Assembly: GCA_964016885.1 (NCBI GenBank)
Contig: OZ024747.1
Location: 57,970,001 to 58,034,000 of the forward strand
Reading direction: 5' to 3'
DNA from: Eledone cirrhosa
Taxonomy: Eukaryota
DNA: 64,000 nucleotides
Part shown: piece after piece, positions 5,128-59,152 of the stretch
Numbering within the stretch: the first letter of the stretch is position 1
Layout: every line of letters begins with the position of its first letter
Position numbers and translations under genes: made by a program
The notes under the pieces: generated by a model
Told to the model about the DNA's origin: nothing
The model's database searches: none
The model's input: only the letters and a program-made list of their open reading frames with translations

Positions 5128-5504
5128 TATATAAGTATGTACACGTACATACATATATGTGTACAGACGTCCAGTAGTATGTATATATACATACATGCAT
5201 ACATATCGAGTGGGTTAATCGGCCGGGTGCACCAAAAACGATAAACGGAAAAAATGAAACGAAATTTCATTTCCCACTCTTAGTACGGCTGTTACTTAAA
5301 TATAAGTATGTACACGTACATATATATATGGATACAGACGTACAGTAGTATGTATATATATATACATACATGCACACATATATATATGTACGTATGGATT
5401 CACCGAACCTTTATTATAATGCTCGGTGTGTTCGTAAACAAACATCCCGTATTAAGCCGTAGTGTCTAGCAACCATCGTTGCTCGTTTGTTCAACACTGA
5501 CAAA

Positions 5505-5555
5505 GGAACGCTGTACTAGTTTCAAGCTTATTAGTTATCGTCAGCAACGTATACC
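5505..5555 (-). ncRNA. Minimal type I hammerhead ribozyme, unit 1
   Basis: Minus strand: acgttg CTGACGA taac-taataa-gctt GAAA CTAG TA cagcgt. Stem I acgttg/cagcgt, palindromic stem III ACTAGT, GUA triplet. Confidence 0.8.
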
Positions 5556-5924
5556 TTCCTCCCAGATTGTTGAACGTATATACTTACCTTATGCATATTA
5601 ACGGCTGAGTAGCCCAATCTGCATATCGATTGGGTTAATCGGCCGGGTGCACCGAAAACGATAACGGAAAAAATGAAACGAAATTTCATTTCCCACTCTT
5701 AGTACGGCTGTTACTTAAATATAAGTATGTATACGTACATACATATATGTATACAGGCGTACAGTAGTATGTATATATATATACACATACATGCACACAT
5801 ATATATATGTACGTATGGATTCACCGAACATTTATTATAATGCTCGGTGTGTTTGTAAACAAACATCCGTATTAAGCCGTAGTGTCTAGCAACCATCGTT
5901 GCTCGTTTGTTCAACACTGACAAA

Positions 5925-5975
5925 GGAACGCTGTACTAGTTTCAAGCTTATTAGCTATCGTCAGCAACGTATACC
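5925..5975 (-). ncRNA. Minimal type I hammerhead ribozyme, unit 2
   Basis: Minus strand: acgttg CTGACGA t-agc-taataa-gct-t GAAA CTAG TA cagcgt; all three stems intact. Confidence 0.85.
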
Positions 5976-6193
5976 TTCCTGCCAGATTGTTGAACGTATA
6001 TACTTACCTTTTGCATATTAACGGCTGAGTAGCCCAATCTGCATATCGAGTGGGTTAATCGGCCGGGTGCACCGAAAACGATAAACGGAATTTCGTTTCA
6101 TTTTTTCCGTACACATATATATATATATACACACACATATAAACATATACAGACATATACATATACAGACACACATATATTATATATATATTT

Positions 6194-17538: not shown

Positions 17539-18830
17539 TAACAATACAACAGAACAAATGCGAATAAATAAGGAAAATATGTTTATTCAAAAATATAGAC
17601 CAACATTAAATAAGGTTTAATATACATTATGTCAACACCACAATATGACATACACACACACACACATAACACCTTCTACTTTAGAAAATAAAAACCCGAA
17701 CTAAATAAACCTTAACATACGTTTGCACTGGCAATACAACAGCAAACACGAAAAAGTAAGGAAAATATGTTCATTCAAAAATATTCCTACTAAAGGAATC
17801 ACTTTCCTACACACACACATACACACACACACAATATATATATATATATATATATATATTCTCTTCATCTTAACATGCTAACCATACTCCCACACACATA
17901 ACACCCATACACACACATAACAACCCCCACACCTACAACTCCCTCCCCATTTCTACTAATAGAACCACTTTCCTACACACACATATATATATACACACAC
18001 ACAAAATATATATTCTCTCCATCTTAACATACTCGCACACACACACATAATACCCATATACACACACACACAACTCCCTCCCTCATCTCTACTAATAGAA
18101 TCATCTTCCAATACACACATACACACACACACACACAAGCACACAAATAAACATACATATCTTCAGTCTCAATAGAAAATCTGAACTCTGACACCCCGGC
18201 GAGCTGGCCATATTCACTGAACCAGAACATTTCTCCCAATCCCTTTTCTCTTGACCACTATCTCTCCATTGTCATAACATTCACTATAAAGACTACAGAA
18301 TAGTTTTCCAAATAAGGGCGCAAAAATGTAATGAAAACTTGTTCACGTGACAGCCAAATTTCATTTATAACCAACCAAAAAAAAAGCCTTCGTGAGCCTC
18401 CTTTTTTCAAGTAAAAAGAAATTCAAACACTCATATATGAAAAAACAACCTGTGACAACCCCCCCCCCCCACTTTCTTATTTGAAGAACTATTGTAACGC
18501 GAACTGGCGCGAAATTTATTATAATTATTGACAAACCAATCAAATTACTTCTCGAAAAACCTGGCATTTCGAGCCACTTTTTCCATATAAAACAAGTAAC
18601 ATTCTGAGACCAACCAGATGTGAGAAAAACCACAGACCCTCCATCTCAACTCACCTTTTGAAAAGCAGAAGAACTGCGAAACCGGTAAAGGAACCAAATA
18701 AATATATATATTTAAAAAAAAAATAAGACTTCAGTTGCATTTTCGATTTCATCTCTTTTTCTTTATACTTTTACTCGTGTAGGACACCTCGGTTATTTTT
18801 CATTTTGTAAAAAAAAACCTTACTTTCTAA
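17539..18830 (+). mobile_element. Penelope-like element 3' fragment (end of GIY-YIG, 3' UTR, pLTR with HHR)
   Basis: Matches 46160-47090 (KENMFIQKYRP.LN..*). Ends with the HHR at 18654-18691, then TA. TA-flanked on both sides. Confidence 0.85.
18654..18691 (+). ncRNA. Minimal type I hammerhead ribozyme with U3:A8 core
   Basis: cctt TTGAAAA GCAG-aagaa-CTGC GAAA CCGG TA aagg: perfect stems I and II, palindromic stem III ACCGGT, GUA triplet. Confidence 0.85.
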
Positions 18831-34462: not shown

Positions 34463-34722
34463 CAGGAAATGTCAATTTTTGAGGGACATCGTATATATAT
34501 ATACAACATTAATAAATGGAAACTATATTTATAAACCATATTTATTTCATTATATATATTTCAAGGATACCAAGTTAAATATATATAATGAAATAAATAT
34601 GGTTTATAAATATAGTTTCCATTTATTAATATTGTATATCTACTCCAAATATTTGTCGAGTGCTTTATATCAGTTATAATAATATTTGCTTGTTGTATCC
34701 CAACAATTTCAATTAGAACTTT

Positions 34723-34762
<40 letters not shown>

Positions 34763-35061: not shown

Positions 35062-35222
35062 TTTTTCTTTCTCTATAACCCAACGGCTTATTTTAAAAAT
35101 AAAAATATCCAATACTAATAATAATATAAGTAAACAACTCCACTATCCGGGAGCTTCCAACAGTAATGGTTGCATTTTTTTAAGGGTAGGTCAATATTTA
35201 TTCATAAAACTGATCTATATTA

Positions 35223-35287
35223 TATTTTGTCTGATGAAAGCACACCATAATTTAACTTGGTGTCCTTGAAATATGTATAATGAAATA
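35223..35287 (+). ncRNA. Type I hammerhead ribozyme (family E)
   Basis: tattttgt CTGATGA aagcacacca-taatttaact-tggtgtcctt GAAA tatgta TA atgaaata; AUA triplet. Related fragments at 34505-34727 and 35472-35562. Confidence 0.75.
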
Positions 35288-35414
35288 AATATGGTTTTAT
35301 AAATATAGTTTCCATTTGTTAATATCGTATATTTACTCCAAATACTTGTTGAGTACTTTATATCAGTTATAAAAATATTTGCTTGTTGTATCTCAACAAT
35401 TTAAATAGAACTTT

Positions 35415-35458
<44 letters not shown>

Positions 35459-35561
35459 AACGTTCTATTTAAAAGCACACCATAATTTAACTTGGTATCC
35501 TTGAAATATGTATAATGAAATAAATATGGTTTTATAAATATAGTTTCCATTTGTTAATATC

Positions 35562-35598
<37 letters not shown>

Positions 35599-35976: not shown

Positions 35977-36162
35977 CGAAGGAAATGTGGTACGGAACCA
36001 GATGGACCATAAGGCACCAAAGTACTCAATACTTAGGGTAGTAGAGTGGGTAATAGGAACGAGTAGGACTCCGACGGCTGAGCTCAAGCCGTTTCGACGG
36101 CTAGTCCAGAATTAGCCGTCGAAACGGCTTGAGCTCAGTTGTCGCGGTCCTACTCGTTCCTA
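35975..36162. mobile_element. Family D pLTR end with a terminal fold-back
   Basis: taacgaaggaaatgtggta... then a hairpin (36055-36162) turning in HHR stem II; TA-flanked. Confidence 0.8.
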
Positions 36163-37129: not shown

Positions 37130-37328
37130 AAAATGTTTCACCTCGACGGCAGAGCTCAAGCCGTTTCGACGGCTATTTCTGGACCCTAGCCCAGAAATAG
37201 CTGTCGAAACGGCCTGAGCTCTGCCGTCGGTGTTAAACATTTTCCTACTACCCACTCTACTACCCTAAGTATTGATTACTCTGGTGCGTTATGGTCCATC
37301 TGGTTCCTTACCACACCTCCTTCGTTAT
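36933..37328. mobile_element. Two fold-back pLTR fragments (family F 36933-37068; family D 37127-37328) in (TA)n
   Basis: ttttatagaaggagcttctacaggact/agtcctgtagaagctccttctataaaa hairpin, homologous to 61370-61500. Second hairpin taggaaaatgttt...aaacattttccta. Confidence 0.8.
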
Positions 37329-44454: not shown

Positions 44455-47660
<3,206 letters not shown>

Positions 47661-49529: not shown

Positions 49530-49616
49530 ACCTTTACCGAATCGATTTCGAGTCTCAAAAATAAATGGACAGTCCTTGCAGGCTTCCATTGAAAAGATAA
49601 ACTCTCGTCAGAAGGT
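49530..49616 (-). ncRNA. Type I hammerhead ribozyme, extended stem II
   Basis: Minus strand: acctt CTGACGA GAGT...aatgga..tccatt...ACTC GAAA tcga-t-tcgg TA aaggt; GUA triplet. The host repeat (~49350-49680) ends in (TA)n. Confidence 0.8.
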
Positions 49617-50762: not shown

Positions 50763-50793
<31 letters not shown>

Positions 50794-51307
50794 GTATATT
50801 CATATCTGTACAGAGTATATACGTGAGTAAATTGTACACGTTGCACTATTGTTTCTTTATTTCTTTATATACATAACGTAGTGTAGAGGCCAACAGTTCA
50901 TTTCAGTACAATACTTGTGCACCTGGTATCTTACACAATAGAATATCGTGTCATTATTTAATATTAATTTCGTCTGTAGCATTTCAACGGATGTTTCATA
51001 TGATGTATTTTACCACAATAATTGAAGAGAATGTTTGTTTTATATAATTACTCCAAGTTCCCTAGGAAGTAAAGGACCATTTCATGTAGTTACACCAGAT
51101 ACATTATAAGAAGTTTTCGCCTTTTGTAATTAAAAGAAACCGCATTCGTTGTTGATTCACCTTTTGTAGTTAACGTATCTACATTTAGTGGTTGTTTAGT
51201 TCTAAGTAGTTGAACCAAGTACTTTACGTACTGGGTTCAAAGCTTGATGTTATGTCAAATACGTACGATAAATACATGATCGCCTATAGATAAATCAAAG
51301 GAAAGAT

Positions 51308-53130: not shown

Positions 53131-53175
53131 ATCAATGATATTAATAAATGGAAACTATATTTATAAAACCATATT

Positions 53176-53236
53176 TATTCTATTATATTTATTTCAAGGG
53201 TACCAACTCTTTGGTACGCCCTCATCAGATAAAATA
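53176..53236 (-). ncRNA. Type I hammerhead ribozyme (family E), left arm
   Basis: Minus strand: tattttat CTGATGA gggcgtacc-aaagagtt-ggtaccctt GAAA taaata TA atagaata. Confidence 0.75.
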
Positions 53237-53356
53237 ACAGAGCTTGTTTTATAAATATTGACATATCCAGGAATGAGACCTTAACGGTTCAAGTTTTAGC
53301 TGGATAGTAAAACTTGAACCGTTAAGGATATGTCAATATTTATAAAACAAGCTCTG

Positions 53357-53417
53357 TATTTTATCTGATGAGAGTGTACCAAAGTTTTGGTACCCTTGAA
53401 ATACATATAATAGAATA
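53357..53417 (+). ncRNA. Type I hammerhead ribozyme (family E), right arm of the fold-back at 53139-53455
   Basis: tattttat CTGATGA gagtgtacc-aaagtttt-ggtaccctt GAAA tacata TA atagaata. Confidence 0.78.
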
Positions 53418-53537
53418 AATTTGGTTTTATAAATATAGTTTCCATTTATTAATATCATTAATATCATTGTCGAGTGCTTCGAATCTGTTATAAATGTATA
53501 TATTTGTTGAATTACCAACAAATTAAATATCCCTTTG

Positions 53538-57342: not shown

Positions 57343-58140
57343 ACGTAGTGACGGACGCAGGTAGAACTCAGTTTTGTTAGCTGAGTGGCCACTAGAATCG
57401 AACTTACGCCCTTACAATCGTAAGCCAAATACCTTAACCTCTAATCCACGAGAATTCACACACACATACATCCATATATATATAAGTGAACACACATACA
57501 CAAACACACATACACACACATACACATATGGTGTTCGTTTGATAGGATTCTATATTATATATCTGTTTATGTGTTTGTGGTTTTGTAACTCTAGTCGTAC
57601 ATAACTTCTTGTAGCTAAAGTAATATAACAGCGGTAATATCATCATCAACACATCATCACCATCATTATTTCCCGTCGTTTTACGTGATCATTCCTGTAC
57701 ATTATCTTAGCTGTTTTCGTTTGTCAAGTTAATGAAACGTTCTTTAGTTTTCTGTATATCGTCACTCGCCTCAGGACTTAGCTGAATTCAGGTTATTTTT
57801 GTTCTCTTTTTATCTGAAAGATTAAGAAGTAAAAGGAAACAACCTCTTTCAATGTAACATTCAAAATATAAATAAACATACATATCTGATAAAATAAATA
57901 TAAATTAATGTAACAAATAGTAAACAGTGAAAGGAGATTTTACCTGATTCAAAGTAAGAAAGAAACAAACACAGCTATAACGAAGAAACTGGAATTTACA
58001 GAACGTAGTGACGCAGGTAGAACTCATTTTTGTTAGCTGAGTGGCCACGAGAATCGAACTCACGCCTTTACAATCGTAAGCCAAATACCTTAACCTCTAA
58101 GCCACGAGAATTCACACACACATACATCCATATATATAAG
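57343..58140. repeat. ~140-bp direct duplication of a minus-strand SINE head (57343-57487 and 58003-58140)
   Basis: cgcaggtagaactca.ttttgttagctgagtggccac.agaatcgaact...cacacacatacatccatatata is present twice. Confidence 0.8.
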
Positions 58141-58161
58141 TTGCACGGGATAAGGTATTTT

Positions 58162-58598
58162 GACTGTCACTACTCTAAAACAATAGCGTAAGGGCTTCGA
58201 AATGCTTTTAATTAAGCATACACTATATATACATTCATATATATATCGCTATTTCAGAGCACCAATTCTAATTTTCAATTTCTGCTTGACCGGCAACCGC
58301 TCTGTATAATCAGTTTCTGATTATTACTGGAATTCTATAAGAATCAAACATTCATAATTTTCAGCAAACAGGTGGAGTAGTTAGCTTTGATAAGCACTAA
58401 AAAGTGCGAAACAGAGCTCTGTCAGCTTTATCTCCCCTGTTTGCTGAAAATTGAAGTAAGTGAGACTGTCACTACTCAAAAACAATAGCGTAACGTCTTC
58501 GAAATGGGTTTACTTAAGCATACAGTGTATTGCAAAATACACTATATATACATTCATATATATATTGCTATTTCAGAGCACCAATTCTAATTTTCAAT
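58162..58598 (+). mobile_element. 1.4-unit tandem of a 302-bp HHR-containing repeat (retrozyme-like)
   Basis: gactgtcactactc...accaattctaattttcaat occurs at 58162 and 58464; the HHR lies between them, and the array ends at TA. Confidence 0.78.
58356..58452 (+). ncRNA. Type I hammerhead ribozyme, U3:A8 core, long extended stem I
   Basis: aattttcagcaaacagg-tggag-tagtt-agct TTGATAA GCACT-aaaa-AGTGC GAAA CAGAGCTCTG TC agct-ttat-ctcc-cctgtttgctgaaaatt; GUC triplet at 58421-23. Confidence 0.88.
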
Positions 58599-58614
58599 AT
58601 ATATATATACATGA

Positions 58615-59013: not shown

Positions 59014-59152
59014 TAACGAAGGAAATGTGGTAAGGAACCAGGTGGACCATAACGCACCAAAGTACTCAATACTTGGGGTAGTAGAGTGGGTAATAGGAAC
59101 CAGTAAGACCCCAACGGCTTGAGCTCAGCTGTCGGGGTCTTACTGGTTCCTA
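59014..59152. mobile_element. Family D pLTR end with a terminal fold-back
   Basis: taggaaccagtaagacccc...ggggtcttactggttccta hairpin turning in HHR stem III. Further copies at 51650-51820, 59997-60125 and 63553-63734. Confidence 0.8.

Follow-up and report, generated by a model that had tools for sequence, protein, structure and literature searches.

The systems closest to the locus described here are the animal non-LTR retrozymes (Cervera and de la Pena 2020, PMC7229834; Li, Clavereau and Pollet 2026, 10.64898/2026.07.22.740005), the pseudo-LTR minimal hammerheads (Cervera and de la Pena 2014, PMC4209133), and the satellite hammerheads of the newt and axolotl (PMC7229834, PMC3088659). In the accounts that these papers give, non-LTR retrozymes are short, AT-rich, non-coding, structured and multi-copy units, which carry a type I hammerhead with an internal loop in stem I, coexist with Penelope-like elements, and are common as solo copies. 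Pseudo-LTR minimal hammerheads have almost no helix III, a helix II of 7-8 bp with an extra 5' base, and a flanking ORF. The newt and axolotl hammerheads lie in units of approximately 330 nt and have a palindromic stem-loop III that allows a double hammerhead; the monomer is weak there owing to the shortness of helix III. No literature description of a cephalopod or octopus hammerhead, retrozyme or Penelope family like the unit analyzed here was found, although the supplements of PMC7229834 and 10.64898/2026.07.22.740005 may list one; the giant squid genome paper (PMC6962438) gives 235 hammerhead matches in its text, without detail.

The window, that is, the whole stretch of 64 kb that was analyzed, contains an insertion built from a 319-nt unit with a single hammerhead. 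This unit shares all of the retrozyme features listed above, whereas its U3-A8 core and 12-nt palindromic stem-loop III (1-2 bp in the described retrozymes) set it apart. A self-blocking helix is predicted here, whereas most animal retrozyme circles are described as leaving the ribozyme free, some mussel ones excepted; the 319-nt family is known here from DNA copies, none of those listed spanning two ribozymes. With the pseudo-LTR minimal hammerheads it has in common the type I topology, a palindromic helix III suited to dimers, the U3-A8 variant (described in Schistosoma) and insertion as partial tandems; unlike them, it has a 4-bp helix III, a helix II that follows A9 directly, and no ORF. 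Judged by these sequence features, the 319-nt family is not a minimal pseudo-LTR hammerhead. The unit length and the palindromic stem-loop III resemble those of the newt and axolotl satellites, whereas helix III is stable here and a rival helix is what is predicted to trap the monomer.

Hammerhead Motif

A type I hammerhead motif with an extended stem I was identified on the forward strand at 58356-58452 by a structural descriptor, the fold z-score, a sub-threshold Rfam match and folding. In hammerhead numbering, the core consensus is CUGANGA (CTGATGA in DNA); the core box found here, TTGATAA (58387-58393), is its U3-A8 covariant. The box is followed on the same strand by stem-loop II (58394-58407), whose 5-bp stem (58394-58398 with 58403-58407) was recognized from the sequence and from read variants, by GAAA (58408-58411), and by stem-loop III (58411-58422), a perfect 12-nt palindrome in which 58411-58414 pair with 58419-58422. 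In folding, this element forms 4 bp closed by a tetraloop in the monomer and 12 bp in a double hammerhead. The GUC triplet (58421-58423) places C17 at C58423, and by the hammerhead consensus the cut is predicted 3' of this nucleotide. Stem I has a distal part of 17 consecutive Watson-Crick pairs (58356-58372 with 58436-58452), followed inward by a bulged T, a 4-bp helix (58374-58377 with 58432-58435), an internal loop in which TAGTT (58378-58382) faces TTAT (58428-58431), and a proximal helix of 4 bp (58383-58386 with 58424-58427). The stems accordingly measure 4 + 4 + 17 bp (I), 5 bp (II) and 4 bp (III). The perfect 17-bp distal stem, the GUC site and the internal loop had been described in an initial annotation made from the sequence, and all three were recovered at these positions. 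Its further statement that all helices are intact holds in that each of them can form; in the predicted ensemble, however, a rival helix is preferred, and the pair probability of proximal stem I and stem III is close to 0.

All core positions (the 3-9 box, G10.1-C11.1, GAA, A15.1-U16.1 and H17) fit the hammerhead, with a U-A pair at 3-8. This covariant is natural and active in vitro according to PMC3088659, and U3-A8 cores are present in Schistosoma Penelope-like elements according to PMC4209133. The stem I loop holds a U and loop II an A, which are the residue types of the loop I-loop II contact, as far as the sequence goes; in solved structures, the last A of loop II is reported to form a conserved Hoogsteen pair with stem I (PMC2553840).

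When a strict type I descriptor (stems of 4/4/4 bp) was run on the window and on 150 dinucleotide shuffles, the 58356-58452 site was the only match in the window, and the shuffles gave none. The fold z-score of 58345-58465 was -6.8, with 0 of 200 shuffles as good. A chance origin of the motif was rejected on these two grounds. The Rfam model Hammerhead_HH9 scored 22 bits (E = 0.02), below its gathering score of 52, and no Rfam match at the locus reached gathering level; numerous Rfam microRNA matches near the locus were dismissed as microsatellite artefacts. The 58356-58452 segment is a genuine type I hammerhead motif, whose cleavage is predicted.

Architecture of the Insertion

The whole insertion (58162-58598, forward strand; 437 nt, 33% GC), delimited by alignment and by a depth step in sequencing run X1, comprises 1.4 units. 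It consists of a left partial copy (58162-58279), namely, 118 nt of the 3' part of the unit minus a 17-nt hairpin piece, and a full unit of 319 nt (58280-58598), whose repeated part (58464-58598, 135 nt) forms the right copy and adjoins an (AT)n/(CA)n tract. The right copy contains an 8-bp hairpin with a GCAA loop (58524-58543). Alignment of the two copies revealed seven substitutions over 118 nt and one 17-nt indel; five of the seven differences crowd into 36 nt of the right copy. The repeat coordinates and the 1.4 units given earlier proved exact, whereas the period of 302 given with them applies at the start of the repeat and becomes 319 once the 17-nt deletion of the left copy has been passed, so that the full unit is 319 nt long. 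The repeated 118/135 nt exclude the ribozyme, and the insertion therefore contains a single hammerhead.

The full unit is strongly structured (z = -5.6, 0 of 100 shuffles as good), has 34.5% GC, and is considered non-coding, as its longest Met-started frame has 35 codons; no coding ORF was found at 58162-58598. Non-LTR retrozymes are described as devoid of LTRs, primer-binding sites and polypurine tracts; in the present insertion, the repeated termini represent a permuted form of the unit and lack TG..CA ends. The right end of the insertion lies directly against (AT)n, the left end has no direct contact with such a tract, and both flanks are unrelated to the unit. Where non-LTR retrozymes have target-site duplications, these exceed 4 bp; here, no such duplication was found at the junctions, the only shared sequence being a 12-nt microsatellite word away from them. 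Tandem Repeats Finder did not report the 1.4-unit repeat. Further copies of the family were absent from the 64-kb window, which is AT-rich, microsatellite-dense animal DNA; one weak match (50770-50854) is TA-rich. A bacterial promoter scan, not relevant to animal DNA, gave one site versus 3.1 expected. Just upstream of the insertion, a tRNA-like repeat occurs in two copies (58010-58112 and 57354-57456) that are 95% identical, with a weak Rfam tRNA match on the minus strand at 58047-58104.

Copies of the Family in Sequencing Runs

Four of eight public sequencing runs (X1, X4, X5 and X6) were aligned to 58112-58612; X1 may come from the same source as the window, X4 carries an organism label distinct from that of X1, and X6 consists of RAD reads, in which a few loci may dominate the counts. 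The unit was matched by 5179 contigs of X1, 47 of X4, 81 of X5 and 10164 reads of X6. Summed depth in X1, which is not a copy number, increased within the insertion to 16,000-768,000, as against 628-1398 for the left flank. It was uneven, with minima at the ribozyme core and in one bin of the right repeat, which a simple model of 5' truncation fails to explain.

Eight X1 contigs and one X4 contig run from 58598 on into the sequence of 58280. Joints 58436>58163 and 58437>58164 (X1) and 58447>58165 (X4), with letters of the ribozyme 3' arm between, were also found. Thus, the other genomic copies with other end points that had been anticipated do exist: among the 5179 X1 contigs, copies pass 58598 into the middle of the unit, and the ribozyme 3' arm into 58163. 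Among the 24 records listed (5362 further), none spanned two ribozymes. Thirty X1 contigs exit at 58272 into (AT)n, short deletions are concentrated at 58581-58595, and strand inversions account for 6 of the 15 joints listed (28 in all). In X6, 652 of 735 molecules cease aligning at 58213, and hence the 17-nt hairpin is kept in most copies. Among 24 of the 539 loose ends, those listed, the positions of both locus ends lead in other copies into the unit or (AT)n and not into an ORF. The unit is a ring-closing, high-copy family that often ends in (AT)n.

A pattern specific to the family ribozyme had no matches in metagenome contigs. A 21-nt word was found at nine metagenome loci, where the match extended over 24 nt only and was treated as chance; the same word gave no matches in the prokaryote and viral collections. 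A diverged subfamily in X4, X5 and X6 shares 58223-58319 and differs on both sides, and one X4 contig returns from 58319 to 58223.

Sequence Variation and State of the Copy

At 58395, C is replaced by T in 780 of 1157 X6 reads, and at its stem II partner, 58406, G is replaced by A in 809 of 1197; that is, the C58395-G58406 pair is T-A in approximately two thirds of the X6 reads, and one X5 contig (depth 398) apparently carries both changes together. Pairing is retained as G-U with the variants at 58383 (A>G) and 58407 (C>T), and those at 58380 and 58401 are located in loops, whereas stem I loses its last pair in 240 of 413 X6 reads, which have A for T at 58452. No variants inside the core were present among the 40 rows listed of 143, which suggests that the U3-A8 core is common to the whole family. 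In the diverged subfamily, the 58524-58543 hairpin is preserved through compensatory changes in two pairs and has TTCG as its loop, as read from loose ends before 58223 in X5 (one contig) and X6 (2443 RAD reads, possibly from few loci). Such structure-preserving changes point to selection acting on the RNA.

Eight positions (58194, 58316, 58356, 58398, 58478, 58494, 58508 and 58513, among the 40 of 143 rows listed) differ from the present copy in more than three quarters of the X1 depth and of the X6 reads. One of them, 58398, is U here and C in 1094 of 1158 X6 reads; U58398 can pair with A58403, the last A of loop II, which reduces this loop from six bases to four. Of the seven positions at which the repeats differ, six are best read as decay after insertion, and the 58162-58598 copy appears slightly worn, with approximately 2% private changes since it was inserted.

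Penelope-Like Elements and Other Repeats in the Window

A decayed Penelope-like ORF (44474-46240) encodes a reverse transcriptase (RT), a four-cysteine finger and then a GIY-YIG remnant. The RT matched Pfam RVT_1 under its curated cut-off (E = 4.6e-05), and the five best matches of the ORF were octopod proteins, the top one from Octopus bimaculoides (69% identity), which makes an octopod host likely. By its domain order, the ORF is Neptune/Nematis-like; its 3' end is repeated at 17539-17784 and 46353-46417. Penelope-type tails with minimal hammerheads were found at 34496-34728, 35170-35570 and 53131-53529, several of them as inverted pairs and with (TA)n ends; motif search placed the minimal-hammerhead cores at 35231 and 53365 on the plus strand and at 53228 on the minus strand. 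Neither the Penelope-like ORF nor these tails showed sequence similarity to the 319-nt unit.

On the minus strand, a 420-bp tandem (5202-6090; 2.1 copies, 96% alike) has a type I hammerhead core in each unit (5964 and 5544). Stem III is a palindrome of 6 nt, and a U-U mismatch lies at the foot of stem II, a stem that is damaged in the 5544 copy. The sequence of this tandem suggests a second retrozyme-like family with two ribozymes in tandem, which has no similarity to the 319-nt unit beyond TA hairpins. A CTGACGA core is also present in another minus-strand segment, 49535-49611, in which stem II has a long insert and stems I and III are possible. Next to (TA)n tracts (33689, 34412, 36067-36149, 37140-37233, 59113-59141 and 60089), there are short repeats, often palindromes, that resemble the sequence just upstream of the 44474-46240 ORF. 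The region 1-2820, GC-rich relative to the rest of the window, holds the broken ORF of a non-LTR retrotransposon, whose RT domain matched Pfam RVT_1 (E = 1.1e-12).

Predicted Folding of the Ribozyme

Folding was predicted with a nearest-neighbour model, which ignores Mg2+ and tertiary contacts. The minimum-energy fold of the monomer was an "off" helix (58383-58418, forward strand), in which 58383-58389 pair with 58412-58418 and hide U3-U4-G5; the hammerhead lay 3.5 kcal/mol above it at 37 °C and 4.7 kcal/mol at 15 °C, and the off helix was the predicted minimum across 15-37 °C. It is predicted to be complete once 58418 has been transcribed, ahead of the closure of stems I and III. Proximal stem I and the beginning of the core have their complement in loop III. 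When proximal stem I and the palindrome were randomized, an equally large gap was obtained in 2.7% of 3000 designs, a figure that refers to one post hoc case. For two molecules, the joint minimum was the exact double hammerhead (-101.1 versus -91.6 kcal/mol for two off monomers); a dimer route would require exchange of the 25-bp stem I, a kinetically difficult step. The model thus predicts that a lone unit folds off and that two units pair as a double hammerhead via the palindromic stem III.

In the loose ends of two X1 contigs and one X4 contig, stem III has a variant form with GGCC as its loop, in which the palindrome is preserved. With their phase assumed, the sparse variants hint at joint change in stem I, position 58383 and loop III (AGCU to GGCC) that keeps both the palindrome and the off helix. 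From the folding model, it may be proposed that the hammerhead of this cephalopod family is a conformational switch, off in the lone unit or circle and active as a double hammerhead in units paired through the palindrome; we put this forward as a speculative possibility, itself rather doubtful.

Discussion

The insertion is probably a solo 1.4-unit copy of a high-copy, non-coding 319-nt family, most likely a non-LTR retrozyme copied in by a Penelope-like RT/endonuclease. Its unit length falls within the retrozyme range of approximately 150-450 nt, GC is below 50% and the unit is non-coding, all in agreement with PMC7229834; copies are many, and Penelope-like elements coexist with it. We infer from PMC7229834 and PMC11167929 that tandem copies elsewhere would be transcribed, and that their RNA would be cut at GUC and ligated to circles; expression as linear or circular RNA, cleavage and circularization would then follow the course described for related elements. 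A Penelope-like protein, the presumed helper, would nick AT-rich DNA, and reverse transcription would begin internally near 58598, approximately 170 nt past the cut, and run 1.4 times through the unit. Since the inserted sequence continues across the cut site and beyond the point where copying began, the template would have been a circle or an uncut multimer; the 1.4-unit shape fits both alike, and the data do not separate them. An origin by reverse transcription of circular or multimeric RNA, as the initial annotation had proposed, is supported by the other copies and their other end points. PMC8557442 names insertion at (TA)n, strand inversion and partial tandems as Penelope-like traits, and PMC11167929 describes an anole Penelope-like element with an internal RT start and AT-rich targets, which prefers uncut RNA in vitro. 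Microhomology was considered as a means of priming at the 3' end; according to the same paper, the anole element initiates in the absence of homology. For the 3' ends, the claim made here is restricted to fixed internal ends beside (AT)n.

The same Penelope-like hallmarks (partial tandems, inversions and (TA)n targets; PMC8557442), together with the U3-A8 cores of Schistosoma Penelope-like elements (PMC4209133) and the reported resemblance of Xenopus retrozymes to pseudo-LTRs, would also suit a different origin, in which 58162-58598 derives from the terminal repeat (pseudo-LTR) of an autonomous Penelope-like element, as a partial tandem truncated at its 5' end. This is unlikely: among the 24 of 539 loose ends listed, the locus ends return in other copies into the unit and not into an ORF, the motif has a 4-bp stem III, an internal loop in stem I and a stem II of 4-5 bp that lacks an extra base at 9/10.1, and minimal hammerheads occur separately in the window (35231, 53228 and 53365). 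Less probable still is that the 1.4 units were left by a satellite-type array, or arose by local DNA duplication, with unequal crossover rather than reverse transcription at this site as the shaping process. Retrozyme arrays are thought to expand also by DNA-level mechanisms, and the crowding of five of the seven inter-repeat differences into 36 nt of the right copy would agree with this; however, the right end coincides with the ends of many other copies and lies against (AT)n, the flanks are unrelated to the unit, and the structure-preserving changes indicate selection at the RNA level.

This copy could be regarded as a fast ribozyme that is active at present as a monomer and gives rise to circular RNA, since all helices can form, its 4-bp stem III exceeds that reported for monomer-cleaving invertebrate retrozymes, U3-A8 variants are reported as active (PMC3088659), and tertiary contacts could offset the gap of 3.5 kcal/mol. 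Such activity is improbable. A single ribozyme cannot excise a monomer, so that the locus would release none and could be cut at most once; the off helix is the predicted minimum across 15-37 °C and is complete by 58418; U58398 narrows loop II relative to the C of the family; and the copy bears at least eight near-private substitutions and the 17-nt deletion. The "active" class of Li et al. (2026), as defined there, has two ribozymes, whereas this locus, with one hammerhead only, fits their "monomer" class. Its earlier designation as the best candidate for a currently active ribozyme is therefore not upheld, given the single ribozyme, the predicted misfolding of the monomer and U58398; the 420-bp dimer at 5202-6090 has two tandem cores. 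It should be noted that eight of nine Xenopus retrozyme dimers are reported without in vitro cleavage, and hence a good-looking motif may be inactive.

As a probable non-LTR retrozyme, the 319-nt family extends these elements to a likely octopod genome and adds to them a family with a U3-A8 core, which is useful and unsurprising. How animal retrozyme circles with a free ribozyme stay uncut is treated as an open question in PMC7229834 (Cervera and de la Pena). If the proposed switch were true, it would provide, for the 319-nt family, a protein-free explanation of how circles escape self-cutting. The wider interest lies in the predicted fold, monomer-off and dimer-on, which would make this a short RNA suited to testing self-blocking.
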